Source: Anaerolineae bacterium (lineage in GTDB: Bacteria > Chloroflexota > Anaerolineae > SpSt-600). From it: a stretch of DNA of 64,000 nucleotides. A program made the position numbers and the translations under genes. Positions 43,760-58,170 of the stretch are shown here, one piece after another. Location of the stretch: the NCBI GenBank assembly GCA_042408195.1, contig JBHOQL010000067.1, positions 11,579 through 75,578 on the forward strand, given 5' to 3'. Every line of letters starts with the position of its first letter. The stretch's first letter is position 1. Below the pieces are notes generated by a model. That model saw nothing but the letters and a program-made list of their open reading frames with translations. It was not told the DNA's origin and ran no database searches.

Positions 43760-44248
43760 ATGGGGATGCAAATAGCCTTTTTCCTTTTCAGCCTGATCGC
43801 AGTAATCGGGGCTTTGTTGGTGGTGACCACCAGGAGACTATTCCACAGTGCTCTTGCTTTGGTCCTTTCCTTTGTGGGAGTAGCTGGCCTCTACATCCTC
43901 CTGGAAGCTGAATTCTTGGCAGCCATCCAGATACTCATCTATGTGGGGGCCATTGCCCTCCTAATCCTATTCGCCATAATGCTGACGAGGCACCTCATGG
44001 ATCCTAAGGCCAGGGCTTTCAACGAGCAATGGTGGATCGCAGCCCTGGTGGCAGGTCTCTTATTTGTGGTCCTCTTGGCCATGATATGGAGGGTTCCGTG
44101 GCCTGTTAAGGAAGTGACTGCCCCTCATAACGTCATAGAAAACCTTGGTGCCTCTTTTGTGGGGGAGTATCTTGTCCCCTTCGAGGTAGTTTCCATCTTA
44201 CTGATGGCCGCCCTTATAGGGGCCATAATTATCGCCCGGGAGAGGTAA
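43760..44248 (+). CDS. nuoJ: NADH-quinone oxidoreductase subunit J
   Basis: 162 aa with five TM segments. Its position fits ND6. Confidence 0.8.
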   Translation: MGMQIAFFLFSLIAVIGALLVVTTRRLFHSALALVLSFVGVAGLYILLEAEFLAAIQILIYVGAIALLILFAIMLTRHLMDPKARAFNEQWWIAALVAGLLFVVLLAMIWRVPWPVKEVTAPHNVIENLGASFVGEYLVPFEVVSILLMAALIGAIIIARER

Positions 44249-44251
44249 GAA

Positions 44252-44560
44252 ATGATTCCTCTGAGCTGGTATTTAATTGTAGCAGCTGCCCTTTTCTGCA
44301 TTGGACTCTATGGAGTGCTGGCCCGCCGCAATGCTATTGGGATCCTGATGGGCGTGGAGCTAATGCTTAACGCTGTTAACCTAAACTTGGTGGCCTTTTG
44401 GCGTTATATTAACCCTACTGACCTTTCTGGCCTTGCATTTGCCATCTTTGTCATTGCCGTAGCAGCAGCCGAGGCAGCTGTCGGCTTGGCCATAATTATC
44501 TCCATTTACCGTACCCGTGATACGGTGAACGTAGAAGAAGTTGATCTGCTGCGAGGTTAA
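44252..44560 (+). CDS. nuoK: NADH-quinone oxidoreductase subunit K
   Basis: 102 aa with three TM segments. The conserved Glu residues are in TM helices ([12 protein letters not shown]). Confidence 0.85.
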
Positions 44561-44722
44561 GGTGGAAAGAGGAGAAGTACTCGGTAGGCTCAGGGAGTTT
44601 CTGGAGCGGGGGGAAGGGATAATTTTTGCTTATCCCTTGAGGTGTTCAGCTTTGCCTGTGAGGATTTGGGCGATTTTGAGGCCTTTTTGCAATTTATGAG
44701 CACTCTTTTAAGGAGGCAGTGA

Positions 44723-46777
44723 ATGGAGGGGATTTTCTTCCTCAAACTGGTTTGGCTGATACCCCTTATACCTCTGGCTTCTTTCTGGATTATCGTCCTC
44801 TTCGCTAACCCCAGTAAAAGGCTCAGTCATTCCGTGGCCATAGGTGGCATTGCTCTGGCATGGCTCCTTTCCTGGGGCGCCCTTTACGAGGGGATAAAGC
44901 ATCACGTGGGGGCCGGTGAAAAGGCTTTCCACTTGAGCTGGAATTGGTTTCCCACCGGCCTAAGCTGGTTCAAAATGGGGGTTATAGTGGACCCCCTGAC
45001 CCTGGCTATGCTTTTCATGGTTCCTTTTGTTTGTCTCCTCATCTTCATTTACTCCGTCGGTTACATGCACGGTGACCCCCGCTACTCTCGTTACTTTGCC
45101 TATATTTCCCTCTTCGCCTGTGGGATGTTGGGCATGATCCTGGCTGATAACCTTCTCATGCTGATGGTTTTTTGGGAGGTCATGGGTCTCTGTTCTTACC
45201 TTTTAATAGGCTTTTGGTTTGAAAAACCCTCGGCGATGCGGGCTGGTCTAAAGGCTTTCATCACTACCCGCATTGGTGACGTAATGATGCTCTTGGGAAT
45301 TGTCTACCTTTATTCCCGCACTGGCTCCCTGACCTACACCGAGATTTTCAAGCCGGAAGTTTTGGAAGAGCTAGCCCATTCCACGGTGGCACTACCACTG
45401 CTAGGTGAGCTCCCTGTGGCCACGGTGATAGCGATGCTACTCTTCGGCGGGGCGGTGGGCAAAAGCGCCCAGTTCCCGCTCCACGTGTGGTTGCCTGATG
45501 CAATGGAAGGCCCCACCCCTGTCAGTGCCCTGATCCACGCTGCCACCATGGTGGCAGCAGGTGTCTACCTCGTGGCTCGCTCTTTCCCACTTTTCTCCGT
45601 TGTAGAGCACGGGCCTCAGCTCGGTCTTGTGGCCTTTATCGGTGCCTTCACTGCTTTCTTCGCTTCCACCATAGCCATCGCCCAGAACGATATAAAGCGA
45701 GTGCTGGCTTATTCCACCATAAGCCAGCTTGGTTACATGATTGCGGCTCTGGGGGTGGGAGCTTATGTGGCTGCTGTCTTTCACCTTATAACTCACGCCT
45801 TCTTCAAGGCTTTACTTTTCCTGGGTTCCGGTTCCGTCATCATTGGCACTCACCACGAAATGGACATGATGAAGATGGGCGGACTTCGCAAGCGGATGCC
45901 CATCACTTTTTGGACTTTCCTGATGGGAACACTGGCACTGGCTGGCATCCCGCCCTGGGCTGGATTTTGGAGCAAGGATGAAATTATCGGCCACGCTTTC
46001 CACCATGCCTCCGAGACAGGATTCCTCTCTTGGCCTGGCTTTGTCTGGATTATGGGCACGTTGGCGGCTTTCCTGACAGCTTTCTACATGGGTCGCCAGG
46101 TTTTCCTGACCTTCGCTGGGGAACCTCGCAGCCATCACGCTGAGAAGGCCCATGAAACTCCGTGGGTGATGACTGTACCCCTCATAATTCTTGCCTTCTT
46201 CTCCACTTTCTTGGGCTTCATAGGGGTACCTCACGATTTCCCAGTCCTTGGTCCGCTTCTCAACAATCCATTTCACCACCTTGTCGGAAAGGAATTCCCG
46301 GCTGTTCCCCTTAACTTCGGAGTGATGGGCCTTTCAGTACTCATGGGCTTTTCCGGCCTCGCTCTCTCTTGGGTTGTCTACGGCCGCAAGCCTCTCAAGG
46401 CTGGCCAGCCCGATCCCCTTTCCATCTCTCTCGGACCGATCTACACCGTCCTCAAGAACAAGTACTACATTGACGAGTTCTATCAGGCTACTGTCATCCG
46501 CTTCGCTCTGTGGCTCTCTGAGACCCTCTTCAAGTTTGACGATCGCTGGATCATTGACCCAATAGTGGATGGGGTCGGCAAGCTGGGCAGGAGGCTTTCA
46601 GAACTGGGAGGCATATTTGATCTCAAGGTTGTGGATGGGATCGTGAACGGTTTGGGGAAAGTCACCTCAGCTTTCGGAGGCCTGCTCCGTCTCACTCAGA
46701 CGGGTAAAGCCCAGAATTACCTTCTGGTGGCGGTCCTTACGGTGCTGATGCTTCTCGGGATATACATGGTGATATAA
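44723..46777 (+). CDS. nuoL: NADH-quinone oxidoreductase subunit L
   Basis: 684 aa antiporter-like subunit with the long C-terminal helix region. Motifs include WLPDAMEGPTPVSALIHAATMV. Confidence 0.9.
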   Translation: MEGIFFLKLVWLIPLIPLASFWIIVLFANPSKRLSHSVAIGGIALAWLLSWGALYEGIKHHVGAGEKAFHLSWNWFPTGLSWFKMGVIVDPLTLAMLFMVPFVCLLIFIYSVGYMHGDPRYSRYFAYISLFACGMLGMILADNLLMLMVFWEVMGLCSYLLIGFWFEKPSAMRAGLKAFITTRIGDVMMLLGIVYLYSRTGSLTYTEIFKPEVLEELAHSTVALPLLGELPVATVIAMLLFGGAVGKSAQFPLHVWLPDAMEGPTPVSALIHAATMVAAGVYLVARSFPLFSVVEHGPQLGLVAFIGAFTAFFASTIAIAQNDIKRVLAYSTISQLGYMIAALGVGAYVAAVFHLITHAFFKALLFLGSGSVIIGTHHEMDMMKMGGLRKRMPITFWTFLMGTLALAGIPPWAGFWSKDEIIGHAFHHASETGFLSWPGFVWIMGTLAAFLTAFYMGRQVFLTFAGEPRSHHAEKAHETPWVMTVPLIILAFFSTFLGFIGVPHDFPVLGPLLNNPFHHLVGKEFPAVPLNFGVMGLSVLMGFSGLALSWVVYGRKPLKAGQPDPLSISLGPIYTVLKNKYYIDEFYQATVIRFALWLSETLFKFDDRWIIDPIVDGVGKLGRRLSELGGIFDLKVVDGIVNGLGKVTSAFGGLLRLTQTGKAQNYLLVAVLTVLMLLGIYMVI

Positions 46778-46809
46778 AGCCGAAATCCCTGAAAAAGGAG
46801 GCTTGAGAA

Positions 46810-48321
46810 ATGGGGTTTCCTATACTCTCAGCCATAACCTTTACCCCGGCGATCGGAGCGTTGATCCTCCTTTTCTTCCCGAAGGAAAAAGTAAAGCTCA
46901 TCAGGTGGTTTGCTATAGGTGTAAGTCTTATACCCTTAGCTCTTTCAATCTACCTCTGGCTTGCCTACAATCAAGCCGAAGGTGGAATCCAGTTCGTAGA
47001 GCGCCGCCTCTGGATACCTGCCATCAACGTCTGGTACCACGTAGGCGTCGACGGGATAAGTGTGCCCATGGTCTTCCTAACCTCCCTCCTTTCAACCCTG
47101 GGCTACTTCTATTCGGCCTACACCATCCACGAGCGAGTTAAGGAATACTACTTCCTGTTCCTCCTGCTTCAGACCGGAATGTACGGGGTCTTTGTGGCGC
47201 TGGACTTTGTCCTCTTCTATGTGTTCTGGGAGGTCGGCCTTGTCCCGATGTATCTTCTCATCGGGGTGTGGGGTGGAAAGCACCGCGAGTATGCGGCTAT
47301 AAAATTCTTCCTCTACACTTTAGCTGGAAGCGTCTTCATGCTTCTGGCCATCCTCGGGATTTATTTCACCACTGGAAGCTTTGACATCCTAAAGGCAGCT
47401 GAAGTGCACCCCTTCGCCGATAACTTCACGCTGGCCAGCCTGGCCTTCTGGGCTTTCTTTATCGCCTTTGCCATAAAGGTCCCAAGCTTCCCCTTCCACA
47501 CCTGGTTGCCCGATGCACACACTGAGGCCCCCACTGCCGGCAGCGTTATCCTGGCCGGCATCTTGCTGAAGCTGGGCTGCTACGGCCTCCTCCGGATAGT
47601 CCTGCCCATATTTCCTGAACCCTTCAGGTTCTACGCTCCTATTGTAGCTGTTCTCGGGCTCATAAGTATAGTTTATGGCGCCTTCGTATGTATGGCTCAG
47701 TGGGACCTCAAGCGCCTCATCGCTTATTCATCGGTGGCCCACATGGGTTACGTTGTTCTGGGGATCGCAGCGGCGGCCGCCAGCCTCAATTTCAACCATC
47801 CCGCCTATAGGGAAAGCTCAGCCATAGCCCTTAATGGTGCCACAATGCAGATGTTCAACCACGGCATCATAACAGGTGGCTTGTTCTTCCTGGTAGGCAT
47901 GATTTACGAACGGGCTCATACCAGAGACCTCAAAGTTTTCGGAGGCCTCGGAGCAAAACTCCCCTATTACTATGCTGTGGTGATGATCACCGGATTGGCC
48001 TCCCTTGGCCTACCTGGTCTTGCTGCGTTCTGGGGCGAGTTCTTGGTGTTCAGGGGCGCTTTCCACATAATCCCGTACATTGCCGCTTTCGGCGTCTTAG
48101 GCGTGGTGGCCACGGCTGGATACATCCTGTGGAAAGTGGTGCAGTTCATGTTCCTGGGACCTTTCAACGAGGAGAAATGGGGGCACCTCACCGATATGGA
48201 GACTTTTGAGAAAATAACCATGTGGCCGCTGTTGCTTTTCATGGTAGGTTTCGGCCTCTATCCCGCACCTTTGCTCAACATAATCAATACTGCTACAACT
48301 GCCCTCATGAGCAAACTGTGA
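46810..48321 (+). CDS. nuoM: NADH-quinone oxidoreductase subunit M
   Basis: 503 aa. HTWLPDAHTEAPTAGSVILAGILLKLG is an ND4 signature. Confidence 0.9.
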   Translation: MGFPILSAITFTPAIGALILLFFPKEKVKLIRWFAIGVSLIPLALSIYLWLAYNQAEGGIQFVERRLWIPAINVWYHVGVDGISVPMVFLTSLLSTLGYFYSAYTIHERVKEYYFLFLLLQTGMYGVFVALDFVLFYVFWEVGLVPMYLLIGVWGGKHREYAAIKFFLYTLAGSVFMLLAILGIYFTTGSFDILKAAEVHPFADNFTLASLAFWAFFIAFAIKVPSFPFHTWLPDAHTEAPTAGSVILAGILLKLGCYGLLRIVLPIFPEPFRFYAPIVAVLGLISIVYGAFVCMAQWDLKRLIAYSSVAHMGYVVLGIAAAAASLNFNHPAYRESSAIALNGATMQMFNHGIITGGLFFLVGMIYERAHTRDLKVFGGLGAKLPYYYAVVMITGLASLGLPGLAAFWGEFLVFRGAFHIIPYIAAFGVLGVVATAGYILWKVVQFMFLGPFNEEKWGHLTDMETFEKITMWPLLLFMVGFGLYPAPLLNIINTATTALMSKL

Positions 48322-48334
48322 AAGGAGGTCAGCC

Positions 48335-49807
48335 TTGAGCGCTGTGGACATTCTTTCCGCCTTTGCTCCGGAGATAGTCCTCTTCTTGGGAGGGCTGGTC
48401 CTTCTGGCTCTGGATATGGTTTGGAAGAGGATGAGGGGGGAGAGAGAGGCCACAATATTGGGCTTGGCACTGGCTTTCGTAATCCTATCCTTCATTTTTC
48501 TACTGGCCTTTGGCAAGGTCTTGGCTTCACCCGTGCTGGGGGTCCTAGCCTCCGACAGGTTTGCCCTCTTCTTCAAGGGGTTTGCCCTGGTAGGGACAGG
48601 GCTCGTCATCTTGTCTTCCTACCGGTACCTTGAAGGTTACACCCCTTACCGCGGAGAATTTTACGCCTTTCTCCTCCTGGTTGCTTTGGCCATAATGCTG
48701 GTCGTAGGGGCTGTGAACCTGCTAATGCTTTACCTGACTTTTGAATTCCTCAGCCTTACCTCTTACATACTGGTAGGCTACCTGAGGGAGGAGGGCAAGT
48801 CAAGCGAGGCTGCCATAAAGTATTTCCTCTACGGAATTACCGCTTCCGCCATGATGCTATACGGCATGTCGCTCCTCTACGGGGTTACCGGAACACTAGA
48901 TTTAACCAGGATAGGGCCAGCCCTAAGCAGAAGCGGAGTCGGCGGCTGGCTAGCTTTCCCTGCCATCGTGCTTCTCCTGGCAGGCTTCGGGTTCAAGATT
49001 GCCCTTGTTCCCTTCCACCAATGGTCTCCTGATACATACGAGGGCGCTCCCACTCCAGTGACTGCTTTCCTCTCGGTAGGGCCCAAGGCTGCCGGGCTGG
49101 CAGTGCTCATGAGGGTTTTCATAACAGCTCTTCCGGGATTCCAGCCGGAGTGGGCTGGAGTGTTGGCCGGCATTTCCATGGTAACCATGACTTTGGGGAA
49201 CTTGGTGGCTCTCCGCCAGGAGAACATCAAAAGGATGCTGGCTTACTCCAGCATCGCTCATGCCGGTTACATCATCATGGGCGTCGTGTGCATGGTGAGT
49301 GGAGTGACCAGTAACTTCACCGGCCTTAACGGGGTCCTTATCTACTTGATGGCTTACCTCTTTACCAACCTGGGGGCTTTCGCCGTGGTCATAGCGGTGG
49401 AAAGGGCTATCGGTTCCAACCGTATTTACGATTACGCCGGCCTCGTGAAGCGAGAACCCTTCCTGACCGGAGCCATGATCGTATTCCTCCTTTCCCTGAT
49501 CGGTATACCTGGGACTGGAGGATTTGTGGGGAAATTCTTCGTCTTTGGAGCAGCCATCCAGTTACAGTTCTACGTTCTGGCTTTAGTGGGGATAATAAAC
49601 AGCGTTATCTCGGCTTTCTACTATCTCAACGTAGTCAGGCATATGTTCTTCCTGCCCGGAGATGAAAGGCCGATCCAGGTTAGCCCCTCTCTCAAGTGGG
49701 TTGTATTGGTGAGCCTGATAATGGTCTTCGTAATTGGCCTTTATCCTCATCCCTTTATCTCCATAGGCACCGAAGCCGTCCAGGTGCTGGGTTCTACTTT
49801 GTTCTAA
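48335..49807 (+). CDS. nuoN: NADH-quinone oxidoreductase subunit N
   Basis: 490 aa with ND2-like composition. It is the last gene of the operon. Confidence 0.85.
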   Translation: MSAVDILSAFAPEIVLFLGGLVLLALDMVWKRMRGEREATILGLALAFVILSFIFLLAFGKVLASPVLGVLASDRFALFFKGFALVGTGLVILSSYRYLEGYTPYRGEFYAFLLLVALAIMLVVGAVNLLMLYLTFEFLSLTSYILVGYLREEGKSSEAAIKYFLYGITASAMMLYGMSLLYGVTGTLDLTRIGPALSRSGVGGWLAFPAIVLLLAGFGFKIALVPFHQWSPDTYEGAPTPVTAFLSVGPKAAGLAVLMRVFITALPGFQPEWAGVLAGISMVTMTLGNLVALRQENIKRMLAYSSIAHAGYIIMGVVCMVSGVTSNFTGLNGVLIYLMAYLFTNLGAFAVVIAVERAIGSNRIYDYAGLVKREPFLTGAMIVFLLSLIGIPGTGGFVGKFFVFGAAIQLQFYVLALVGIINSVISAFYYLNVVRHMFFLPGDERPIQVSPSLKWVVLVSLIMVFVIGLYPHPFISIGTEAVQVLGSTLF

Positions 49808-50366
49808 AAACCTGGCTGGTGGGCCCTTTCAATTCCAAAGGGATGCCGGCCACCATTAGGATAACCCGGTCTGCCCGGGCCGCCAACCACTGATTAACCT
49901 CTCCCAGCGCATCACGGTAAATCCTTCCGGAGGGATAAGGGGGCACTACCCCCATCCCTACTTCATTGGAAACGACGATGAGGACGGTTTTATGGGCTTT
50001 GCATAGATTCAGCACCGATTCCAGTTCCTCAACAGCCTGTGCCGTTAGGCGGTCTACCGTCGCCGATTCACCTTTCTCCATCATCAAGTTGGAAACCAGC
50101 AGAGTTAAACAATCCAGGATTGCCACTTTTGCCTCACTGATTACCTGCTCCAGGGCTTGCCCAATGCACGAGGTTACTTCCAGAGTACGCCAGTGGATTG
50201 GTCGGGTAGCCCGGTGGCGGGCTATACGCTCTGCCATCTCCTCATCTCCTGCTGTTGCCGTTGCGATGTAAACGACGGGTTCGCCTATTTCTTCGGCCAG
50301 TTTCTGAGCATATTTGCTCTTACCGCTGCGGACTCCCCCCAGGATAAGGATTACTTCTGATCCCAT
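49794..50366 (-). CDS. cobU: Adenosylcobinamide kinase / adenosylcobinamide-phosphate guanylyltransferase
   Basis: N-terminal P-loop ILILGGVRSGKS (compare S. enterica CobU ILVTGGARSGKS). 190 aa. Confidence 0.85.
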   Translation of the reverse strand: MGSEVILILGGVRSGKSKYAQKLAEEIGEPVVYIATATAGDEEMAERIARHRATRPIHWRTLEVTSCIGQALEQVISEAKVAILDCLTLLVSNLMMEKGESATVDRLTAQAVEELESVLNLCKAHKTVLIVVSNEVGMGVVPPYPSGRIYRDALGEVNQWLAARADRVILMVAGIPLELKGPTSQVFRTK

Positions 50367-51127
50367 CGCTCTATCCCCTCTAGCAAGGATAAAACCAAAT
50401 TAAGGGAAGGAAAGAAGTCTTCCGCTGAGAAGACCTCCAGCGTGATGACTCCCTCAAACTCCTGACGGACGACTTCGGCCAGGGAGGCACGGAGTGAATC
50501 GATGGGGGCCCAGAGGAGAGAAGCATGGTCGCGTTGGTTTACCCCATGGAGGTGAAGAACCCTTGCCCGTTTCAGATGGGTTTGGAGGATCGGGAGAGGG
50601 TCTGCGCCTGCCATCCAAAGGTGTCCTACGTCCAAGCACAAGCTCACGGGTATCTGATCCAGAATCGGGCTGACGTGTTCCAAGGGGCAGTTTTCCAGGT
50701 TTTCCACGGCCAGAACTTCTGGATTCCCAGTTTCCTCGGAGAGGAGTTTCAGGGCTTCGGTGCTCATCCTTTCCCAGGAGCTCTGATCCCCGGTTCTGCA
50801 TGGAGTGAGGTGGATAATGTAGGCCCATGGTTCCAAAGGGCGTGTGCGCTCGATCACCTGCCTGGCCTTTTCAACCGATTGAATCCACTTCCGACCTCGC
50901 GCTCCCAGTTCCAAGTCGGTGGGTAAGTGAACTGTGTAGGTCATTCCATAAACTCGAGCGATTCTCCGCAGTTCGCTTATCGTGTGAGCGTCGGGAAGGT
51001 TGCTGGCATCGGCCACCTCGAAGAGCACGAGTTCTACGTCTTCAACGATTCCCGCAAGCCGCTGCACGTTAGGAAGGATATCAGCTGGGTAGATGTAAGA
51101 AGTGGAGCCCAATCGGAATTTCACCAT
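50351..51127 (-). CDS. Xylose-isomerase-like TIM-barrel (AP endonuclease 2 superfamily) protein. It is a candidate CbiR-type cobamide-remodelling phosphoribosyl hydrolase.
   Basis: About 258 aa from the internal start MVKFRLGS. The ORF-track start at 51178 is an alternative. E...D.GH-type metal-site motifs are present (ENLENCPLEH, LDVGHLWMAG). It lies between cobS and cobU, and its start overlaps the cobS stop. Confidence 0.45.
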   Translation of the reverse strand: MVKFRLGSTSYIYPADILPNVQRLAGIVEDVELVLFEVADASNLPDAHTISELRRIARVYGMTYTVHLPTDLELGARGRKWIQSVEKARQVIERTRPLEPWAYIIHLTPCRTGDQSSWERMSTEALKLLSEETGNPEVLAVENLENCPLEHVSPILDQIPVSLCLDVGHLWMAGADPLPILQTHLKRARVLHLHGVNQRDHASLLWAPIDSLRASLAEVVRQEFEGVITLEVFSAEDFFPSLNLVLSLLEGIERWDQK

Positions 51128-51867
51128 ATTCTCTTTGCTGCCATAAGCAGAACGATTGCTGTTTCCACCAGCTCGCACAGAGCTCCGTAAACATCACCAG
51201 TGAACCCTGGGATGCGTTGCATCACCCATCGGGCGAATAGGACGGTAAAAAGCAAGGTGAGGGCAGAGGAAACCGCTGTTTCCATCGGATATACAAGGAA
51301 AAGAGGTATAAGCCACATCGTGGCCCCGGCCAAGCTGTGCCTGTCAGAGGCTCCTTTTATTGCCCTACCGATGCCGTTGACGCGAGCGGAGGGGTAGCAG
51401 ACCATCGCGTAAACCATCGCCCACCGGCCCAGGGTTGGGGCCAGAAGCAGGGCACTCTTGCCATCACTGGACAGGAAAGAGGCAAGGGAGGCGAATTTGA
51501 CCAGAAGCAGCGTTATTGCCCCGATCACCCCGAAAGCGCCCGTGTGGACATCTCGCAGGATTTCAAGCCTCGCCTCTGGTGTTTTGGCGGCAAGGAGTGC
51601 ATCACAGCAATCTACAAAGCCATCCAGATGGAGGGCTCCGGTTAGAGCTATCCAAAAGGCAAGGACGAGAGAAGCTTTTACTAAAGGGGCGAAAATCCAG
51701 CCGAGCAGCCAGTCGGTTCCAGCCAGTAACAGCCCTATAACTATCCCAGCGGCAGGGAAGGCCCACGAGGCTTTCCCCACTTCTGCAAGGCTAACTTCCC
51801 CCAGAGGAAGGGGTAGGCGGGTCAAGAAGTGCAATGCGACCAGAAGCGAGCGCAATTTCTGCAGCAT
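51121..51867 (-). CDS. cobS: Adenosylcobinamide-GDP ribazoletransferase (cobalamin synthase)
   Basis: 248 aa and polytopic. The N-terminus LTRLPLP and HLDGFVDCCDAL are CobS signatures. Confidence 0.85.
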   Translation of the reverse strand: MLQKLRSLLVALHFLTRLPLPLGEVSLAEVGKASWAFPAAGIVIGLLLAGTDWLLGWIFAPLVKASLVLAFWIALTGALHLDGFVDCCDALLAAKTPEARLEILRDVHTGAFGVIGAITLLLVKFASLASFLSSDGKSALLLAPTLGRWAMVYAMVCYPSARVNGIGRAIKGASDRHSLAGATMWLIPLFLVYPMETAVSSALTLLFTVLFARWVMQRIPGFTGDVYGALCELVETAIVLLMAAKRIW

Positions 51868-52925
51868 TATCTGGTCCTTTCCGAGACCCCGGCCTCAGCG
51901 AAGGTGGCCATTTCGTTCAAAATCTTGCAAGCAGCTTCCACCAGGTGCATAGCCAAGGCGGCTCCAGTCCCTTCTCCCAGCCGCATGTTCAGGTTCAGAA
52001 GGGGTTTTAAGCCTAAGTGTCGGAGCATAGCGCTGTGGCCTGGTTCTGCGGAGTTGTGCCCGGCGATGCAGTAAGCTGTCACGGTGGGAGCGATGGTCGA
52101 TGCGATGATGGCTCCGGCCGTGGAGATAAACCCATCCAGCACCACGGGGATACGGTTCGCTGCTGCTCCTAGCACTATCCCTGCGATCACGCCAATTTCA
52201 AACCCTCCTACTTTGGCCAGCAGGTCTATTCCGTCCTTGGGGTCGGGATTATTGACCTTCAGCGCCCGTTCTACTACCGCGATTTTGCGGGCCAAGCCTT
52301 CGGTGTCCAAGCCAGTGCCTCGGCCTGTGACTTCCGCCGGTGGCAGGCCGGTGACAGCTGAAGCGATTGCTGCCGCTGGAGTTGTGTTGGCGATACCCAT
52401 ATCCCCTGGCGCTACTAAGTCCAAACCCAGGGCTTTTTCCTCTTCAACGAGGGCTATCCCTGTTTCCAGCGCCTGGATAGCTTGCTCGCGGCTCATAGCG
52501 GGACCCAGAGCTATGTTACCGGTGCCATAGCCGAGCTTTCGGATCTTCAACCCTGGGTGAGGTTCCAGATCGGCAGCGACGCCTGCATCCACCACTACCA
52601 CCCGTGCACCTACGTGCCTGGCTAGGACGTTTATTGCAGCTCCTCCTCGCAGGAAGTTGTAAACCATTTGAGCGGTGACTTCCTGGGGATAAGCGCTTAC
52701 TCCTTCGGCTGCTACTCCGTGGTCTCCGGCCACAACTATTACAGCCTTGTGGCGGATTACTGGCCGAGGATTGCCTGTGATTCCGGCAACTTTCACCGAG
52801 AGTTCCTCTAACTCGCCCAGGCTTCCTTGGGGCTTGGTCAACTGGTCCTGGCGCTTCCTTGCCTCCTCCATGGCCGAAAGGGAAAGAGGACCGATTTTAG
52901 CGATGGTTTCCTGCAGGTATTTCAC
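51867..52925 (-). CDS. cobT: Nicotinate-nucleotide--dimethylbenzimidazole phosphoribosyltransferase
   Basis: The core reads LTKPQGSLGELEEL...VVAGDHGVAAEGVSAYPQEVT...VVVVDAGV. I chose a GTG start at 52925 with RBS GGAGG 5 nt upstream. The longer ORF-track version would overlap the upstream gene by 85 nt. Confidence 0.8.
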   Translation of the reverse strand: MKYLQETIAKIGPLSLSAMEEARKRQDQLTKPQGSLGELEELSVKVAGITGNPRPVIRHKAVIVVAGDHGVAAEGVSAYPQEVTAQMVYNFLRGGAAINVLARHVGARVVVVDAGVAADLEPHPGLKIRKLGYGTGNIALGPAMSREQAIQALETGIALVEEEKALGLDLVAPGDMGIANTTPAAAIASAVTGLPPAEVTGRGTGLDTEGLARKIAVVERALKVNNPDPKDGIDLLAKVGGFEIGVIAGIVLGAAANRIPVVLDGFISTAGAIIASTIAPTVTAYCIAGHNSAEPGHSAMLRHLGLKPLLNLNMRLGEGTGAALAMHLVEAACKILNEMATFAEAGVSERTR

Positions 52926-52927: not shown

Positions 52928-53860
52928 CTACCTCCTTTCGGTGAGAATTGAAATTCCGCAAATCCGGCAATGGTGGGAATTGGGAAGCATCCCGGCCCCG
53001 CAGTTTGGGCATGCGACCTGTCCAGGAACGGGGGTTGGAATCTCTCCCACTACTTCCCTGTAAATTCGATAGTAATATGGCTGATCAGCACTGATGAATT
53101 GGAAGGAAGCTGTCCGATCGGCCTCGGTTACCAGGCTTGCAACTTTTTCCCGAAGTCTAGCGAATCCTGACCCCACTTCTATAGGGCGTTTATCCTGCCA
53201 GCAGATTTTCGGAGGCAATTTGTTCTCAAAAGCCTTTCGCAGAATCCATTTCCCAAAGCGAACTCCGTTCTCTTCCCGGACTTTGAACTCAGGTGGGATG
53301 GCAAGAGCCGTCTCTACCACCCTTTGGTCCAGAAATGGCTGGCTAACTTTTATCCCGAACCAAGAACCGAGTTCGTTGGCCGAAAAAACCATCCGTTCTG
53401 AGAGCCAAGGGATATAAGTTGTCAGGTCCAGATCGAACATGTAGGAATATCCAGCGAAAAGCTCATCGGCACCATCGCCTGTCATAATGCTCTCAAACCC
53501 TCGCTCTTTAGCTTCAGTGAAGGCAAAGTAAAGGGCAAGGTCATTGGGCAAAGCAGGGTCGAAACTCCTCCTGATGCGTATGACTTCAGGGATGGCGGCC
53601 AGTGCTTCTTCTACTGATACTTCTCGCACTATCAAATCAAACCCAAAAGTTTCAGCCATGAGCCTGGCGTAAGGCAGGTCGCTGCCAGTTCCCTCCAGGG
53701 ATACGTGGATGGTGGAAATCGGGGATGCGATGGAAGCCAAAATGCTGCTGTCCAGGCCGCCGGAGAACAACAGTGCCTGGGCAGGGTGCTTTTTCACAGC
53801 CCCTTTAATGGTGGAGTGCAGCTCGTGGAGCATGGTTTCCATACACAAATCGTCAAGCAT
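52928..53860 (-). CDS. Asparagine-synthetase-like PP-loop ATP pyrophosphatase lacking the N-terminal glutaminase domain, with a C-terminal zinc ribbon
   Basis: The PP-loop is SGGLDSS and the AsnB-type motif is TGDGADELFAGY. The C-terminal CPNCG...HHCRICG is a likely Zn ribbon. 310 aa. Confidence 0.6.
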   Translation of the reverse strand: MLDDLCMETMLHELHSTIKGAVKKHPAQALLFSGGLDSSILASIASPISTIHVSLEGTGSDLPYARLMAETFGFDLIVREVSVEEALAAIPEVIRIRRSFDPALPNDLALYFAFTEAKERGFESIMTGDGADELFAGYSYMFDLDLTTYIPWLSERMVFSANELGSWFGIKVSQPFLDQRVVETALAIPPEFKVREENGVRFGKWILRKAFENKLPPKICWQDKRPIEVGSGFARLREKVASLVTEADRTASFQFISADQPYYYRIYREVVGEIPTPVPGQVACPNCGAGMLPNSHHCRICGISILTERR

Positions 53861-54635
53861 ATAGGTCAGGAAGGACCACAGGGCGGAGATTATCGGGCCT
53901 TGGGAGCACTACCAAGCTGCTGCCGTAGGCTTCTCGGAGCCTCTCTTGGCTTATAACCTCTTCCGGTAATCCCGTGGCCAGAATCCTCCCATTGGCCAGA
54001 AGAATAATTCTGTCGGAAAAGGAGGAAGCGAGGTTCAGATCGTGGAAGACAGCCAGGACAGCAAGCCCTTCCTCTTTTGCCAGTTTGCGGATGAGCCCCA
54101 AGACTGAGGCTTGATGGTGTATATCCAAATGGGCAGTAGGTTCGTCCAGAAGCAATATTCTGGGTTCCTGGGCTAGTGCCCTGGCCAAGATCACCATCTG
54201 GCGTTCCCCTCCCGACAATTCTCCTACCATGTTGTCCTTCAAATGCGATATCTTTACCCACTGCATGGCTTTCTGCACTGCTCTGATGTCTCTATCTCGG
54301 GCGATTCCGGGAAAGTTCAGATATGGCGTGCGGCCCAGGAAAATGCTCTCCCAAACGGAAAAGGTTGGGGGTATGTAAGCATCCTGCGGTACAAAGGCGA
54401 TTACTCGGGCAAGGTCTCTCCTCTTCCATTTCTGCAAGGGATGGCCCACGATTTCAATTTCTCCCCCTTGTAGCGGCAGGATGCCAGCTATGAGCTTGAT
54501 AAGGGTGGACTTGCCAGCACCGTTGGGACCTATGAGGCTTACTACCTCCCCCTCGGCTACACTAAGGCTTATCCCTTTGAGCACTGGCTTGCCATCGTAG
54601 CTGAACTGCACTCCCCTTACTACCAGTGGCAACAT
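53853..54635 (-). CDS. ABC transporter ATP-binding protein, BtuD/FecE-like (corrinoid or iron-chelate uptake)
   Basis: Walker A GPNGAGKST, signature LSGGERQM and Walker B LLLDEPTAHLD are present. I chose the internal ATG at 54635 (RBS GGAGGAA). The ORF-track N-terminal extension is unlikely to be real. Confidence 0.8.
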   Translation of the reverse strand: MLPLVVRGVQFSYDGKPVLKGISLSVAEGEVVSLIGPNGAGKSTLIKLIAGILPLQGGEIEIVGHPLQKWKRRDLARVIAFVPQDAYIPPTFSVWESIFLGRTPYLNFPGIARDRDIRAVQKAMQWVKISHLKDNMVGELSGGERQMVILARALAQEPRILLLDEPTAHLDIHHQASVLGLIRKLAKEEGLAVLAVFHDLNLASSFSDRIILLANGRILATGLPEEVISQERLREAYGSSLVVLPRPDNLRPVVLPDLYA

Positions 54636-54649: not shown

Positions 54650-55690
54650 TTAAAATGGGAAAATCTCTTTCTTGTGGCGGCGAAGAAGGTAGAGGAAGAA
54701 GGGGGCTCCTAAGAAAGCGGTAACCACACCGATAGGCAGTTCCCTCGGAGCGAAAATCAGGCGTATGAACCCATCGGCCAGGATGAGGCATATAGCACCG
54801 AGAAGCCCGCTCATGGGCAAGAGGAAGCGGTAATCAGACCCCCACACAATTCGCACTATGTGGGGTATTATGAGCCCCACAAAACCTATTACTCCGCTCA
54901 CAGAAACAGCGGCGGCAGTGGCCAGGGACGCAGCAGCTATAACGATAAGCTTGACTTTTTCCACTTCCACACCCAGAGCCGTAGCTTGGTCCTCATCAAG
55001 CTGAAGGACGTTGAGGATATAAGAGTAATAGGCGATGACTCCGAAAGCCACAGCCATGTAAGGGATTACGGTCTTTATCTTGGGCCAGTCGGCCAGAGCC
55101 AAGCTGCCCATCAACCAGCCCAGCAGGTTGATAGTGTGAAAAGCTTCCCGAGCAGTGAACATAAAGAATGTAGTGGCCGATGAAAGCAGGGCCCCCACTG
55201 CTACCCCTGCCAAGATCAAAGTTGTCACTGGGGCTTTTCCTCCCACTCTGGCTAAGGAATAGATAGCAGCAGTGGCCAGCAGAGCTCCTCCGAAAGCAGC
55301 CAGCGATATGGCGTTCAGACCGCCCCAGGAAAAGCGCCAGATAAAATAAAGGGCCAGCGCAGCCCCGAAAGATGCGCCTGATGACACACCAAGAAGGTAA
55401 GGGTCGGCCAGAGGGTTGCGGAAAATAGCCTGATAAACAGCTCCAGCTACTGCCAAGGTCATTCCCACCATTCCCCCGAGCACAACCCGGGGGATGCGGA
55501 TCTGGAAAATTATCGTTTCCCAAGTGGCTGGTTCCCCGTTTGCTCCCAGCAGTATCCTTGCTACTGCCGAGAGGGGAATGCCAGCTGCTCCCCAGGTTAT
55601 GGCTATCAAACCGATCACTACCAAAAGGGAGGCGGCGACGGCTAGGGAAAGCCACCGCCGCCTCCTGAGGTTGAGTTTAACGGAAAGCAT
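54650..55690 (-). CDS. FecCD-family ABC permease, BtuC-like
   Basis: 346 aa with about 9-10 TM segments and FecCD-type composition. Confidence 0.8.
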   Translation of the reverse strand: MLSVKLNLRRRRWLSLAVAASLLVVIGLIAITWGAAGIPLSAVARILLGANGEPATWETIIFQIRIPRVVLGGMVGMTLAVAGAVYQAIFRNPLADPYLLGVSSGASFGAALALYFIWRFSWGGLNAISLAAFGGALLATAAIYSLARVGGKAPVTTLILAGVAVGALLSSATTFFMFTAREAFHTINLLGWLMGSLALADWPKIKTVIPYMAVAFGVIAYYSYILNVLQLDEDQATALGVEVEKVKLIVIAAASLATAAAVSVSGVIGFVGLIIPHIVRIVWGSDYRFLLPMSGLLGAICLILADGFIRLIFAPRELPIGVVTAFLGAPFFLYLLRRHKKEIFPF

Positions 55691-56651
55691 CGGGATGCAA
55701 CGCTTTAGCTATTAATTCCAAGGCATAAACAACCCTGGGGCCTGGCCTCGAGACGATATCCGTCTGCTCCTGGGTAAGCTCGATGATGCGCCCCTCTTTT
55801 ACAGCCGTGATTTTATCCCAGCCAGGGCGTTTAGCCACGGTCTCAGCCGATTCACCATAGGGATGGTCGGCTAGGATGATCACTTCCGGATCTGCGGCAA
55901 TTACGGCTTCGTTAGAAAGCTGTAGGTAAGGCTGTCCCGTAGCGATATTTTCACCCCCGGCTCTCACGATGATGTCATGGACGAAGGATCCGGGCCCGAC
56001 GGTCCAGAGGTCACTGGAAAGCTCCCAGAAGACTCTTGGTTTTTTCCTGCCTTCCACAGCCTTGGCTATGGACTCCATCTTCTCCTGCATCTCAGCCACG
56101 AGAGTCTTGGCCTCTTTTTCTTTGCCAGTTATCTTGCCCACAAGTTCTATGCTTTCAAGGACCTGGGGCAGATCGTGGGCATCAACTACCACAACTGTAA
56201 GGCCAAGCTTTTCCAGTTCTGGAAGGACCTGGGCTATGTGGATGCTGGCGACGAGCACAAGGTCAGGGTTCAAAGCCATGAGCTTTTCTATGCTGACGTC
56301 AGCGAAACCACCGACTTTGGGCTTAGCCTGGGCTTCGGGAGGATAATTGCAGAACTCTGTCACTCCAGCCACCCTGTCTGCAAGGCCGAGGGCGTAAAGG
56401 ATTTCGGTTATGGATGGTGCCAAGGACACAATGGCTTTAGGCTCAGCTTTGATGGTGACCTGGCGGCCTGCAGGATCCGTCACAGTCATGGGATAAGGAG
56501 ATGGAGTTGGGGTAGGGGGCGGCGCGGGGGTGAAAGTTGGAGTTGGGGGAACGGGTGTCGGGGTAGGAGTTGGAGCGGGCTTACACCCTGCTCCAATCAA
56601 AAGCACGGCGATGGTCAGCAGTGTTATGGTGATAAAAGTCAACCGTTTCAT
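55677..56651 (-). CDS. Periplasmic binding lipoprotein, cluster A / BtuF-like (corrinoid or siderophore)
   Basis: I chose the internal start MKRLTFITITLLTIAVLLIGAGC (lipobox) with RBS GGAGGTG. A Pro/Thr-rich linker is followed by a BtuF-like fold (LAPSITEILYALGLADRVAGVTEFCNYP). Confidence 0.7.
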   Translation of the reverse strand: MKRLTFITITLLTIAVLLIGAGCKPAPTPTPTPVPPTPTFTPAPPPTPTPSPYPMTVTDPAGRQVTIKAEPKAIVSLAPSITEILYALGLADRVAGVTEFCNYPPEAQAKPKVGGFADVSIEKLMALNPDLVLVASIHIAQVLPELEKLGLTVVVVDAHDLPQVLESIELVGKITGKEKEAKTLVAEMQEKMESIAKAVEGRKKPRVFWELSSDLWTVGPGSFVHDIIVRAGGENIATGQPYLQLSNEAVIAADPEVIILADHPYGESAETVAKRPGWDKITAVKEGRIIELTQEQTDIVSRPGPRVVYALELIAKALHPDAFR

Positions 56652-56685
56652 AGCACACCTCCGCACAGGATTGATCAAACAAAAA

Positions 56686-56707
56686 GCCCCCCTGCTAGCC
56701 GGGGGGC
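56686..56707 (-). terminator. Rho-independent terminator serving as the riboswitch expression platform (GCCCCCCGGCTAGCAGGGGGGC followed by UUUUU on the minus strand)
   Basis: Read from the minus strand: a 7-bp G/C stem, an 8-nt loop, then T5. It lies about 35 nt upstream of the btuF-like start codon and downstream of the B12 aptamer. Confidence 0.55.
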
Positions 56708-56829
56708 ATAAATGAAAACCCCTTGCCTGCATAGCAGACAAGGGGGAACTCACCGTTCCATTCCCCTGTGCTCGCAGGTTCCTGGAACCGGGTCCCGGAA
56801 ACGTTCTCTTACAAGAAAGTTAACGGGCC

Positions 56830-57010
56830 CCTTGCGGCGAGGCAGGTATCCTGGCTCTCCCGTCCTTAAGGGTGCGGCCTTATAGCCCCGGCCCTTCTTG
56901 CACCCTGGACAGGATTACAGTTGCGGCACAGCGCCGGCCTTTCCAACCCTTAGGGGCTTCGGGCTGGATCACCGGACTTCCCCTTTTAAGGCCTGCCTTT
57001 CGGTCAGGCT
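56830..57010 (-). promoter_or_regulatory. Cobalamin (adenosylcobalamin/B12) riboswitch aptamer
   Basis: The minus strand contains the AAAAGGGGAAGTCCGGTGA region, the GCTGTGCCGCAACTGTAA element and the B12 box GCCAGGATACCTGCC in the canonical order. The boundaries are approximate (about +/-15 nt). Confidence 0.8.
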
Positions 57011-57084
57011 CACCCCGCCGCCTATTTAACTGGTAAAGTACAAACCTATTATAGCGCGGAAGCACAGTCAAGGCAAATTGGGCC

Positions 57085-58170
57085 CTAAGGCATCATGGGG
57101 ACTTGGGTGAGGAGTTTACCTCTTATGCGTTCAAAAATTTCATCCAAGTCCCGACCGGTTATAGTCAGGCCATGGTTTTTCAGCCCAACCACGGCCCTGG
57201 AAGGGTCCTCGGCTTGTTTGAGGGCATTGACTACTTCCATAGCCAGCTCCCTCGTCCCGCAGGGGTAATTCTGGCGAGTGGGAACTACTCCTTCCATCCA
57301 GGCGTGAGCGTGGACAATTGCTCCCACTTCAGGGAAGTTGGAATAGATAAGGTAGTGCTCAATGGCATCAACTGACGCCCGAACTGTGGGGTCGTAATCG
57401 GGGGGCACGCTCACCAAGATAGTGTTTTTCTCGGGATTGAACCCTTTTATGAGGACGATGTCCTTCCCAATCTTGGAAAGTTTTGCTTTGTTAACCCCCC
57501 TCGCTGTCATCCAGAACGTGGTTTCCCCAAGCTCCGGAATGTTCTCGCGAGCGCTCAAATTGCCGTAGCTAAGGCCCGTTATCCCGTATAGCAAGTAAAC
57601 ATGCCGCAGGTCTCTTTCTGATAAAAGTTCATGGATGGGGAACGGGGCAGGCAGTATGCCCATCTTGTCCATTTCCCGGCCGTAGTGGATAAGTTTCTCT
57701 GTGATGGGTGTGCCGTTCCAGTAAGCCGCAGGTAAGTCGGGTGTGATTTCGTTCTCTATCACCAGGACGGAGCAGGCTAAAGGCATAAGATGCTGGTAAA
57801 CCTCTTCGGGGTTCCAGGGGACTTTGTAGAAGCCTGCTTCCAGAGTTGTAAAGTAAATATCTACCTCTTCTCCCCTGACATGGGCATAAAGGACCAGGTT
57901 TGAAAGGCTGCGGACCAGCACTGTGTAAGCAGCCCGATGGGCATTTTCGGGAAGCTCTTCCACCACTACTAGGCTAGCCACAAACACTCCCTTCGATTTG
58001 CGGCGGTAAGGTCGGGGTTCGTTAGGATCAGTGAGGTTGAGGATCAAGCTGACTTCCGGGTCATTTTCGTGGGAGAGGGTGTGTCCTTTCGATTGCAACA
58101 AAGCCACTATCTTTTCCGCCAATGCATCTCTGACCGGATGCTTATCCAAAGCTACTACCGCGAATTTCAT
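57085..58170 (-). CDS. Class II aldolase/adducin-domain protein with an N-terminal domain of about 150 aa and unknown function
   Basis: The C-terminal half has aldolase-II motifs (GITGLSYGNLSAR, EVGAIVHAHAW, LKNHGLTITG). The N-terminal half was not recognised. Confidence 0.6.
   Translation of the reverse strand: MKFAVVALDKHPVRDALAEKIVALLQSKGHTLSHENDPEVSLILNLTDPNEPRPYRRKSKGVFVASLVVVEELPENAHRAAYTVLVRSLSNLVLYAHVRGEEVDIYFTTLEAGFYKVPWNPEEVYQHLMPLACSVLVIENEITPDLPAAYWNGTPITEKLIHYGREMDKMGILPAPFPIHELLSERDLRHVYLLYGITGLSYGNLSARENIPELGETTFWMTARGVNKAKLSKIGKDIVLIKGFNPEKNTILVSVPPDYDPTVRASVDAIEHYLIYSNFPEVGAIVHAHAWMEGVVPTRQNYPCGTRELAMEVVNALKQAEDPSRAVVGLKNHGLTITGRDLDEIFERIRGKLLTQVPMMP

Follow-up and report, generated by a model that had tools for sequence, protein, structure and literature searches.

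A probable CbiR-type cobamide phosphodiesterase encoded between cobS and cobU in a riboswitch-headed corrinoid uptake operon of Chloroflexota

The gene cbiR, at 50351..51127 on the minus strand of the window (the whole stretch of DNA analyzed here, 64 kb long), very probably encodes a CbiR-type cobamide phosphodiesterase, a metal-dependent member of the AP endonuclease 2 superfamily with a (beta/alpha)8-barrel fold and a predicted role in cobamide remodelling. A preliminary description of this DNA had put CbiR forward as a candidate, and the curated family model, a family HMM, a tree, a conserved set of His, Asp, and Glu residues, and the flanking genes all speak for that identity. The hydrolytic activity, substrate range, and direction of flux are predicted from homology, and because just one CbiR member has ever been characterized, members of this clade might act on another substrate or in another physiological direction.

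The minus-strand ORF that holds cbiR runs from 51178 to 50351 and offers two start options, ATG 51127 (258 aa), which was the earlier choice, and the very next codon GTG 51124 (257 aa); the 3 nt between them are immaterial. The GTG is the likelier start because an NCBI protein is identical to the 257-aa product, and because the N-termini of the 3 homologues read, M-x-F/L-R-L/I-G-S, are that of the 257-aa version. On the upstream side, the cobS stop codon TGA (51123-51121) overlaps the start of cbiR by 4 nt if the GTG is used (GTGA) and by 7 nt if the ATG is used, the junction sequence being ATATGGTGA. On the downstream side, the cobU ATG at 50366 lies 16 nt within the 3' end of cbiR. These overlaps fit translational coupling on both sides. 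The preliminary picture of an ORF of about 260 aa, coupled to its neighbors and flanked by cobT, cobS, and cobU, stands; cobT and cobS are upstream of it and cobU is downstream.

The NCBIfam equivalog model for CbiR, NF041277, scores the cbiR product at 250.6 bits against a cut-off of 105 (E = 1.5 × 10−74), in an alignment of protein residues 4-245 with model positions 1-247 of 249. The runner-up NCBIfam model, for myo-inosose-2 dehydratase (iolE), gives 22.9 bits, where its cut-off is 290. The Pfam match is AP_endonuc_2 (PF01261, xylose isomerase-like TIM barrel) with 49.9 bits against a cut-off of 31.1 (E = 4.7 × 10−13), which bears out the AP endonuclease 2 or xylose isomerase-like fold ascribed to the protein before. 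The domain match together with the CobU, CobS, and CobT neighbors is far beyond chance.

The best relative of the cbiR product is 77% identical, and NCBI gives the name CbiR to homologues from Anaerolineae and Thermoflexus MAGs that are about 59-65% identical to it. The characterized CbiR of Akkermansia muciniphila is not among the 120 homologues listed, nor among the 80 loci that were retained when genomes were scanned; the bridge to it is made by the NF041277 model and by 2 Smithella proteins, from AS17jrsBPGN_1 and AS4AglBPMA_11, which are 49-51% identical to the cbiR product (E about 1 × 10−78) and which Mok et al. 2020 (PMC7733943) list as CbiR homologues in their Table S1. In that table, the AS17jrsBPGN_1 protein is given as 33% identical to A. 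muciniphila CbiR (E = 1 × 10−32) and as adjoining cobamide genes, and the Chloroflexi homologues are given as 28-35% identical, an inclusion criterion of that study being a BLAST E-value below 1 × 10−14 to A. muciniphila CbiR.

Set beside A. muciniphila CbiR (Amuc_1679, WP_081429195.1; PMC7733943), the cbiR product belongs to the same curated family, superfamily, and fold, and it has the conserved His/Asp/Glu set of the family. It differs in its host phylum, which here is Chloroflexota (resembling Anaerolineae/Thermoflexales, going by the nearest relatives), and in an identity that is probably about 30-35%, judging by the Table S1 values of other Chloroflexi. It also differs in its surroundings: the Akkermansia locus has cobD, cobQ, and cbiB, while the locus in the window is without them and has instead a riboswitch, btuFCD, and an asparagine-synthetase-like gene. 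According to Mok et al. (PMC7733943), 76% of CbiR homologues are in Chlorobi, Chloroflexi, and Proteobacteria, 80% adjoin cobamide genes, and 25% are next to transporters. The gene in the window is an ordinary member of a family whose existence, occurrence in Chloroflexi, and cobT/S/U context were already published in 2020 (PMC7733943).

The biochemistry reported for A. muciniphila CbiR is the conversion of AdoCbl to AdoCbi-P and alpha-ribazole, with inhibition by EDTA and a tolerance of many different lower ligands. The enzyme works in E. coli grown aerobically, and in vitro it is oxygen-sensitive and DTT-dependent (PMC7733943). It is a phosphodiesterase, and the alpha-ribazole that it releases has a free 3'-OH (PMC7733943).

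Around cbiR is a compact unit controlled by a cobalamin riboswitch, in the order btuF-btuC-btuD, the asparagine-synthetase-like gene, cobT, cobS, cbiR, and cobU, with every feature on the minus strand. The unit is larger than first described, through the addition of the riboswitch, btuFCD, and the asparagine-synthetase-like gene. At its head, the cobalamin riboswitch aptamer at 56824..57032 is a full-length match to Rfam RF00174, with 60.4 bits against a gathering threshold of 31.5 (E = 1.8 × 10−12), and just upstream of it lies a promoter-like site, TTGCCT-17-TATAAT, at 57048..57076, recognized by its match to the consensus alone. The stretch from the aptamer to btuF contains 2 terminator-like hairpins with T-runs, at 56745-56719 and 56707-56686 (56686..56745), found by a consensus scan that gives no more such sites than in shuffled sequence; they are probably the riboswitch expression platform. 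A cobalamin or AdoCbl riboswitch also precedes btuF in 5 related cbiR loci.

The transporter genes come next. The btuF-like substrate-binding protein is encoded at 55677..56651 (Pfam Peripla_BP_2, 148.8 bits), with a likely start at ATG 56651 (MKRLTF...) after GGAGG; an alternative longer ORF from 56753 would enter the expression platform. The btuC-like permease at 54650..55690 matches Pfam FecCD with 306.9 bits, and its top NCBIfam match is BtuC NF007081 at 288 bits, under the cut-off of 461. The ABC ATPase of the putative corrinoid importer, btuD-like, is at 53853..54635 (Pfam ABC_tran, 129 bits), likewise with a likely start, ATG 54635, after GGAGG; in NCBIfam it is best matched by models for heme and for corrinoid ABC ATPases, neither of which reaches its curated cut-off. 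The asparagine-synthetase-like gene follows at 52928..53860 (Pfam Asn_synthase, 149.3 bits).

Nicotinate-nucleotide:base phosphoribosyltransferase, for lower-ligand activation, is encoded by cobT at 51867..52925 (Pfam DBI_PRT, 481 bits; TIGR03160, 480 bits), the likely start being GTG 52925 with the Shine-Dalgarno sequence AAGGAGGT before it, for a product of 352 aa to be compared with 352-353 aa in homologues. Adenosylcobinamide-GDP ribazoletransferase is encoded by cobS at 51121..51867 (Pfam CobS, 180.2 bits; TIGR00317, 138 bits against a cut-off of 110). After cbiR, cobU at 49794..50366 encodes adenosylcobinamide kinase / adenosylcobinamide-phosphate guanylyltransferase (Pfam CobU, 203.7 bits; NF004469, 200.9 bits against a cut-off of 161).

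This arrangement is not peculiar to the window: of 80 related genomes, most have cobT-cobS-cbiR-cobU in that order. Across these 80 species genomes, cobS is directly upstream of cbiR in 62 of 71 testable loci and cobU directly downstream in 66 of 75, at least 1 of cobS, cobU, and cobT is in the cbiR locus in 77 of the 80, and the position of cbiR between cobS and cobU is kept across phyla. Fusions of CbiR family members with CobU, CbiJ, or ABC ATPases also occur.

By homology to the A. muciniphila enzyme, the cbiR product would cut the bond between the nucleotide-loop phosphate and the ribose of the lower-ligand nucleoside, turning an imported adenosylated cobamide into adenosylcobinamide-phosphate and a free alpha-riboside. 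The operon may then be laid out as a pathway in which corrinoid would be imported by BtuFCD, the unwanted lower ligand would be taken off by CbiR, AdoCbi-P would become AdoCbi-GDP by the guanylyltransferase activity of CobU, CobT would provide the alpha-riboside phosphate of the preferred base, and CobS would join the two. With CbiR-type remodelling, an importer of its neighbors' corrinoids can convert them to the cobamide that it needs, and for this reason the gene helps to predict B12 ecology in communities rich in Chloroflexi.

A useful comparison is with CbiZ, the adenosylcobinamide amidohydrolase and the other enzyme dedicated to remodelling, which serves the same purpose of removing the lower ligand from imported cobamide and is often associated with transporters. 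CbiZ is of a protein family unrelated to CbiR and cleaves an amide bond, so that the aminopropanol linker is lost too and rebuilding requires CbiB and CobD. The product of CbiR cleavage is Cbi-P, for which CobU, CobT, and CobS (with CobC) suffice, and this matches the gene content of the operon.

When cofactor is sufficient, the 5' cobalamin riboswitch would shut down uptake and remodelling together, which would at the same time curb wasteful hydrolysis of completed cobamide. Such joint control offers an answer to a question posed as open by Mok et al. (PMC7733943), namely how cells with CbiR spare their own product.

According to the preliminary description, the operon would be a self-contained lower-ligand remodelling cassette if the protein is a CbiR. 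That is right as to cobT, cobS, and cobU beside cbiR, but slightly overstated, since the window is without a cobC phosphatase or an adenosyltransferase and the cassette is therefore unable to finish the pathway alone. No homologue of cobC, cobA, cbiB, or cobD was found by tblastn over the whole 64-kb window, and none of these families appeared when about 50 of the larger ORFs were scanned with Pfam; the same Pfam scans and tblastn searches, the latter also with a Dph6-like query, found no further B12 genes outside the operon.

With cobC missing from the window, one may ask if the main role of the cbiR product is to fill that very step, as a phosphomonoesterase on cobamide-5'-phosphate or alpha-ribazole-5'-phosphate, alone or beside the phosphodiesterase. 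Tblastn with 3 CobC queries, which come from distant phyla, has no match in the window or in about 84 cbiR loci (some of them same-contig duplicates). Each of the cobUTS loci without cbiR, a control of 3 loci only, has a His_Phos_1 gene, and another locus, which has a CbiR-like gene, is without one. Endonuclease IV, the nearest characterized relative, also has 3'-phosphatase activity, and that counts for such a replacement. Against it is the regiochemistry, because CobC must cleave a 5'-phosphate ester whereas CbiR and endonuclease IV act at P-O3'. Moreover, cobC may be encoded elsewhere in the genome, the characterized CbiR is a phosphodiesterase whose alpha-ribazole product has a free 3'-OH, and the E. 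coli remodelling host in the work of Mok et al. had its own cobC (PMC7733943). We consider it unlikely that replacing CobC is the main role and continue with cobamide phosphodiesterase as the preferred assignment.

The relationship to other enzymes of the superfamily was examined with a family HMM that did not include the window protein. It scores the cbiR product at 327 bits and the 2 Smithella proteins at 324 and 315 bits, while E. coli Nfo, UlaE, Hyi, YcjR, and XylA all score at or below 12.7 bits. Hence the HMM comparison that had been suggested for the candidate comes out for CbiR by the family model as by the curated one. A neighbor-joining tree, which is a simple distance method and here has an outgroup of 5 E. 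coli enzymes only, has a CbiR-like clade that excludes those 5 in 91 of 100 bootstraps, with endonuclease IV as its sister; placement among the sugar isomerases or epimerases, which the preliminary description had named as the outcome speaking against CbiR, did not occur.

The AF2 model of the cbiR product has a pLDDT of 95.2 and is a (beta/alpha)8 barrel with 8 strand-helix units, whose top Foldseek matches are all in the AP endonuclease 2 / xylose isomerase-like superfamily. The family-invariant residues are N19, H66, P68, H105, E141, C163, D165, H168, H191, H200, and E230. Among these, H66, H105, E141, D165, H168, H191, H200, and E230, whose invariance was taken across 40 diverse family members, are located in the model at or just past the C-terminal ends of strands 3-8. 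In the order given, they align with Nfo H69, H109, E145, D179, H182, H216, H231, and E261, which make up all but one of the 9 metal ligands in endonuclease IV; the ninth, Nfo D229, aligns with R198, and a conserved Asp, D199, is one position off. The idea that the invariant Cys163 explains the oxygen sensitivity reported for CbiR was considered and dropped, as E. coli Nfo has a Cys there and one Smithella homologue has a Thr.

The nearest solved structure is MJ1311 of Methanocaldococcus jannaschii (PDB ID: 3wqo, 'D-tagatose 3-epimerase-like protein'), with a TM score of 0.83-0.84 and Foldseek E = 1.6 × 10−12. By sequence, too, MJ1311 matches the CbiR family profile best (E = 2.4 × 10−14), and all of the conserved His/Asp/Glu positions are retained in its HMMER alignment. 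It differs in being archaeal, at 19-20% identity, deposited as uncharacterized, and without the Cys before the Asp. Another structural relative is endonuclease IV (E. coli Nfo; PDB ID: 1qum and related), a TIM barrel at TM 0.75-0.78 with the 8 trinuclear-metal ligands noted above at aligned positions. Endonuclease IV and CbiR are both phosphodiesterases, and the products of CbiR, a free 3'-OH alpha-ribazole and a phosphorylated fragment, match the P-O3' cleavage of endonuclease IV. The two differ in that identity is about 21-22%, and in substrate, DNA for Nfo and presumably cobamide for the cbiR product. No solved CbiR structure was found in the PDB, and the very confident model with its putative endonuclease-IV-like metal site suggests a mechanism that could be tested.

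Several observations point away from B12 and would make the cbiR product an isomerase or epimerase of sugars or sugar phosphates: its Pfam domain is a generic xylose isomerase-like TIM barrel, many homologues are named 'sugar phosphate isomerase/epimerase' (JGI and older NCBI annotation), and Foldseek finds D-tagatose and D-psicose 3-epimerases at TM 0.65-0.72. We reject this reading as very improbable on the curated-model scores, the family HMM, and the tree. All models for sugar isomerases and epimerases fall far short of their cut-offs, iolE with its 22.9 of 290 bits being the best, and E. coli XylA, UlaE, YcjR, and Hyi score at or below 6.3 bits on the family HMM and are outside the CbiR clade. 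Epimerases typically have 4 ligands only (Glu, Asp, His, and Glu), but the CbiR family keeps residues that align with the extended endonuclease-IV-type set in 8 of its 9 positions, and cbiR overlaps both cobS and cobU in a position conserved across phyla.

That the product is a DNA repair nuclease like endonuclease IV, in the operon by chance, has the sister position in the tree, the 8 of 9 ligands, and the Foldseek scores in its favor, but is rejected as extremely improbable, because there is no endonuclease IV model among the NCBIfam matches at E ≤ 0.01, the match of family to Nfo is weak (hhalign probability 87% at 21% identity; Nfo at 12.7 bits on the family HMM; BLASTP of the cbiR product to E. 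coli Nfo at 22% identity, E = 2 × 10−4), and the gene is joined by start/stop overlaps and conserved synteny to a riboswitch-controlled cobamide operon, in a family with fusions to CobU and CbiJ. A CbiR-type cobamide phosphodiesterase accordingly remains the assignment of choice.

The most interesting by-product of the analysis of cbiR is the asparagine-synthetase-like gene, which belongs to the same transcription unit. Only the synthetase / PP-loop domain is present in its product, the glutaminase domain being absent; near the C-terminus are 2 CxxC pairs that are zinc-ribbon-like, and the protein matches no specific NCBIfam model at its cut-off. The family to which it belongs consists of glutaminase-less proteins of about 300 aa, predicted to be ATP-dependent amidoligases, and is located in corrinoid salvage or transport loci in 9 of 9 cases examined (the window and 8 others, from Chloroflexota, Omnitrophota, Nitrospirota, Elusimicrobiota, and 2 metagenome contigs). 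In 8 of the 8 other loci, a gene for a Dph6-like ammonia ligase comes directly after it; in the window, tblastn over the whole stretch found no Dph6-like gene. A search for literature linking asparagine synthase or diphthine-ammonia ligase to cobamides or corrinoids found nothing relevant. We tentatively raise the possibility, doubtful as it is, that the family carries out an undescribed step of corrinoid salvage alongside CbiR-type remodelling, in which case the operon may do more than swap ligands. The step might be re-amidation of deamidated or incompletely amidated imported corrinoids, or else activation of the f-carboxylate for CbiB, and the associated amidoligase family is in either case a lead to a possible new salvage enzyme.

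The minus-strand ORF between cobS and cobU spans 51178 to 50351. The preliminary description began the gene at ATG 51127, giving a product of 258 aa; the adjoining GTG 51124 gives 257 aa, and because that version is an exact match to NCBI protein P0001 and agrees with the N-terminal pattern M-x-F/L-R-L/I-G-S of the 3 homologs compared, GTG 51124 is the likelier cbiR start. The cobS/cbiR junction reads ...ATATGGTGAAATTC..., so the cobS stop (TGA, 51123-51121) overlaps the cbiR start, and at the other end the cobU ATG at 50366 lies 16 nt within the cbiR 3' end. In Pfam the protein belongs to AP_endonuc_2, the family of xylose-isomerase-like TIM barrels (49.9 bits), and its neighbors are very high-scoring members of CobU, CobS, and CobT/DBI_PRT. 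Hence the account of a TIM-barrel gene of about 260 aa coupled between cobS and cobU holds in ORF, junctions, and Pfam family, and the flanking by cobT, cobS, and cobU is borne out by the Pfam and NCBIfam matches.

In its operon, cbiR is gene 7 of 8 in a tightly packed minus-strand unit, where neighboring genes overlap or lie no more than about 15 nt apart. A promoter-like site (57076-57048, a consensus match only) is followed on that strand by a full-length cobalamin riboswitch aptamer (57032-56824, 60.4 bits) and two terminator-like hairpins (56745-56686, from a consensus scan only). The genes are then btuF, btuC, btuD from ATG 54635, an asparagine-synthetase-like gene, cobT from GTG 52925 after AAGGAGGT, and cobS, cbiR, and cobU in that order. 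The longest btuF ORF (55677-56753), read from GTG 56753, would extend across both hairpins of the riboswitch expression platform; ATG 56651, which is preceded by GGAGG and opens a signal-peptide-like MKRLTFITITLL..., is likely the true start. The cobU 3' end converges on nuoN with a 14-nt ORF overlap (49794-49807).

The NCBIfam equivalog NF041277, named CbiR, cobamide-remodelling phosphodiesterase, matches the protein end to end at 250.6 bits (cut-off 105), and the runner-up family, iolE, reaches 22.9 bits (cut-off 290). A search of a large protein database gives 1214 relatives at E <= 1e-5. Exhaustive comparison with 1.84 billion cluster representatives yields 684 clusters at E <= 1e-10, of which 239 reach E <= 1e-30. 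Among the matches listed, those that are about 59-65% identical belong to Anaerolineae and Thermoflexus MAGs; NCBI names several of them CbiR, and some weaker ones (about 51-52% identity) carry the JGI label adenosylcobalamin phosphodiesterase.

Mok et al. 2020 (PMC7733943) first described the family, with Amuc_1679 of Akkermansia muciniphila as the prototype. Purified Amuc_1679 converts AdoCbl to AdoCbi-P and alpha-ribazole, accepts benzimidazolyl, purinyl, and phenolyl cobamides, is inhibited by EDTA, and in vitro requires DTT and anoxia, yet is active in aerobically grown E. coli, which it enables to remodel a cobamide that E. coli cannot otherwise use (PMC7733943). We make the link to the A. 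muciniphila enzyme by way of Table S1 of that paper, where the CbiR homologs include proteins of Smithella sp. isolates AS17jrsBPGN_1 and AS4AglBPMA_11, the former 33% identical to A. muciniphila CbiR (E = 1e-32) and adjoining cobamide genes. Contigs of both Smithella MAGs are among the loci found here (L077 and L068, respectively), and their proteins are 49% and 51% identical to the window protein. With a family HMM built without the window protein, the window protein scores 327 bits and the Smithella proteins 324 and 315 bits. The E. coli members of the superfamily score 12.7 (Nfo, endonuclease IV, 22% identical to the window protein), 6.3 (UlaE), 6.1 (Hyi), 1.6 (YcjR), and -2.0 bits (XylA); in comparison with the window protein, BLASTP has no match for UlaE or YcjR, and Hyi and XylA give short matches at chance level. 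In a neighbor-joining tree, a CbiR-like clade separate from these 5 E. coli enzymes is recovered with 91/100 bootstrap support, with Nfo as its sister, and the window protein groups beside Anaerolineae and Thermoflexus sequences, so there is no placement among sugar isomerases or epimerases.

A CbiR structure was looked for in the PDB and none was found. The AlphaFold2 model, made from a 61-sequence alignment, is a (beta/alpha)8 barrel with a mean pLDDT of 95.2 and a pTM of 0.92. Foldseek against the PDB places MJ1311 (3wqo) at the top with a TM score of 0.83-0.84, with endonuclease IV structures at 0.75-0.78 and ketose 3-epimerases at 0.65-0.72. Across 40 diverse family members, N19, H66, P68, H105, E141, C163, D165, H168, H191, H200, and E230 are invariant, and by DSSP of the model the His, Asp, and Glu positions among them sit at or just past the C-terminal ends of strands 3-8. 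HHalign of the CbiR family against E. coli Nfo (probability 87%, E = 4e-6) pairs H105 with Nfo H109, E141 with E145, D165 with D179, H168 with H182, H191 with H216, H200 with H231, and E230 with E261, and sets R198, adjacent to D199, against D229; H66 pairs with H69 in a HMMER alignment to M. tuberculosis endonuclease IV. These nine Nfo positions are the metal-site ligands of endonuclease IV, and by the two alignments 8 of 9 are therefore kept, with the ninth, an Asp, shifted by one residue. A multinuclear metal center in CbiR would then activate water for attack on the phosphodiester. Endonuclease IV cleaves P-O3'. CbiR is reported to yield cobinamide-phosphate and an alpha-ribazole whose 3'-OH is free (PMC7733943). 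These products correspond to the same regiochemistry.

A scan of one genome per species finds a CbiR relative encoded in 573 genomes. Synteny was counted in the best 80 of these 573, a set made up largely of Anaerolineae/Thermoflexales and also containing some Smithellaceae, Latescibacterota, and Poribacteria. In this set, the gene immediately upstream of cbiR is cobS in 62 of the 71 loci where this could be tested, and the gene immediately downstream is cobU in 66 of 75; both neighbors are in place in 53 of 66. One or more of cobS, cobU, and cobT occur in 77 of the 80 loci, and btuF or btuC in 43 of the 80. An Rfam scan of 9 related loci places a cobalamin/AdoCbl riboswitch just 5' of btuF in 5. 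Among the cluster representatives, CbiR domains also appear fused to CobU (P0126, 453 aa), to CbiJ precorrin-6x reductase (P0222, 505 aa), and to ABC-transporter ATPases (P0265 and P0270, 690 and 694 aa), which supports, at the level of domain architecture, a tie of the family to nucleotide-loop assembly and uptake. The same context and phylum distribution are given for the family in PMC7733943, with 80% of homologs adjoining cobamide genes, 25% adjoining transporters, and 76% in Chlorobi, Chloroflexi, and Proteobacteria.

As judged from homology and gene order, BtuFCD would import corrinoids, CbiR would strip the lower-ligand nucleoside to leave AdoCbi-P, the guanylyltransferase activity of CobU would activate that product, CobT would activate the preferred base, and CobS would couple the two activated parts. 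The riboswitch would put uptake and remodeling under a single cofactor-responsive control, a plausible answer to the question raised in PMC7733943 of how a cell spares its own product from hydrolysis. CbiR cleavage leaves the aminopropanol-phosphate linker, making cbiB and cobD dispensable, and their absence from the operon fits such linker-sparing cleavage. The preliminary description went further and proposed, provided the protein is a CbiR, a self-contained remodeling cassette; the flanking of cbiR by cobT, cobS, and cobU stands, but "self-contained" is too strong, because none of cobC, cobA, cbiB, and cobD turns up when the entire window is searched by tblastn or when about 50 of its larger ORFs are scanned with Pfam.

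That CbiR itself substitutes for CobC seems to us very improbable. By tblastn, no CobC (His_Phos_1) homolog is found in the window or in any cbiR-containing locus (L005-L084), and all 3 cobU-cobT-cobS loci lacking cbiR (L086, L087, L089) carry one; but the comparison is tiny at 3 cbiR-less loci, the CobC queries are distant, cobC may be encoded elsewhere, and the regiochemistry of CbiR cleavage speaks against the role. The anticorrelation may be a habit of the lineages concerned or may hint that the functions overlap. A sugar isomerase or epimerase and a DNA repair nuclease are both ruled against by the scores, the tree, and the context.

The reading as a CbiR-type enzyme, first put forward as a candidate, is thus supported by the NF041277 match, the family HMM score, the tree, and the gene context: the window protein is a typical member of the family described in 2020, with its activity predicted. 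The finding is correct but ordinary; the phylum and gene context are already named in PMC7733943, and a curated model recognizes the gene.

The nearest solved structure, MJ1311, was deposited as "D-tagatose 3-epimerase-like / uncharacterized protein". Against the CbiR family profile it gives E = 2.4e-14 with all conserved His, Asp, and Glu kept, and it might be an archaeal CbiR-like phosphodiesterase instead of an epimerase.

Within the riboswitch-controlled operon, the asparagine-synthetase-like gene (52928-53860, minus strand) lies between btuD and cobT. Its product has the synthetase (PP-loop) domain alone, lacks a glutaminase domain, and carries two CxxC pairs close to the C-terminal end. 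It belongs to a widespread family of similar PP-loop proteins of about 300 aa that also lack the glutaminase domain and for which the AsnB synthetase domain is the top PDB hit. We examined 9 loci, the window plus 3 from Chloroflexota, 1 each from Omnitrophota, Nitrospirota, and Elusimicrobiota, and 2 metagenome contigs; family members include L001 464-1363, L002 4071-5009, L086 7001-7936, L087 7001-7957, L088 7001-7921, L089 7001-7927, and L090 7001-7966. All 9 place the gene amid corrinoid salvage or transport genes, and in all 8 outside the window a Dph6-like (PF01902) ammonia ligase follows directly. The pair usually adjoins cbiB, present in 7 of these 8, and cobD, and once, in L090, it stands between btuF and btuC inside a btuF-btuC-btuD transporter operon. 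We found no literature linking either family with cobamides. The asparagine-synthetase-like gene may represent an undescribed corrinoid amidation or repair step, and the pair merits separate study.

Immediately 5' of the promoter-like site lies a gene (57085-58170, minus strand) for a 361-aa protein that has a class II aldolase/adducin domain and a long N-terminal region, about 190 aa, without a Pfam match; this gene appears to be a transcription unit separate from the cbiR operon. A Complex I (nuo) operon occupies 39893-49807 on the plus strand, with subunits B, C, D, and H confirmed by Pfam and the membrane-subunit ORFs J to N downstream named from sequence only; the window ORFs scanned include no genes of the E/F/G type (NADH-oxidising module). 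Also on the plus strand, 20634-33897 holds a cluster with a large BTAD/TPR regulator, an SDR, a KAS III-like gene, a MaoC dehydratase, 3 AMP-binding (acyl-CoA ligase-like) genes, and 3 alpha/beta hydrolases, a possible pathway for lipids, aromatic acids, or a small secondary metabolite.
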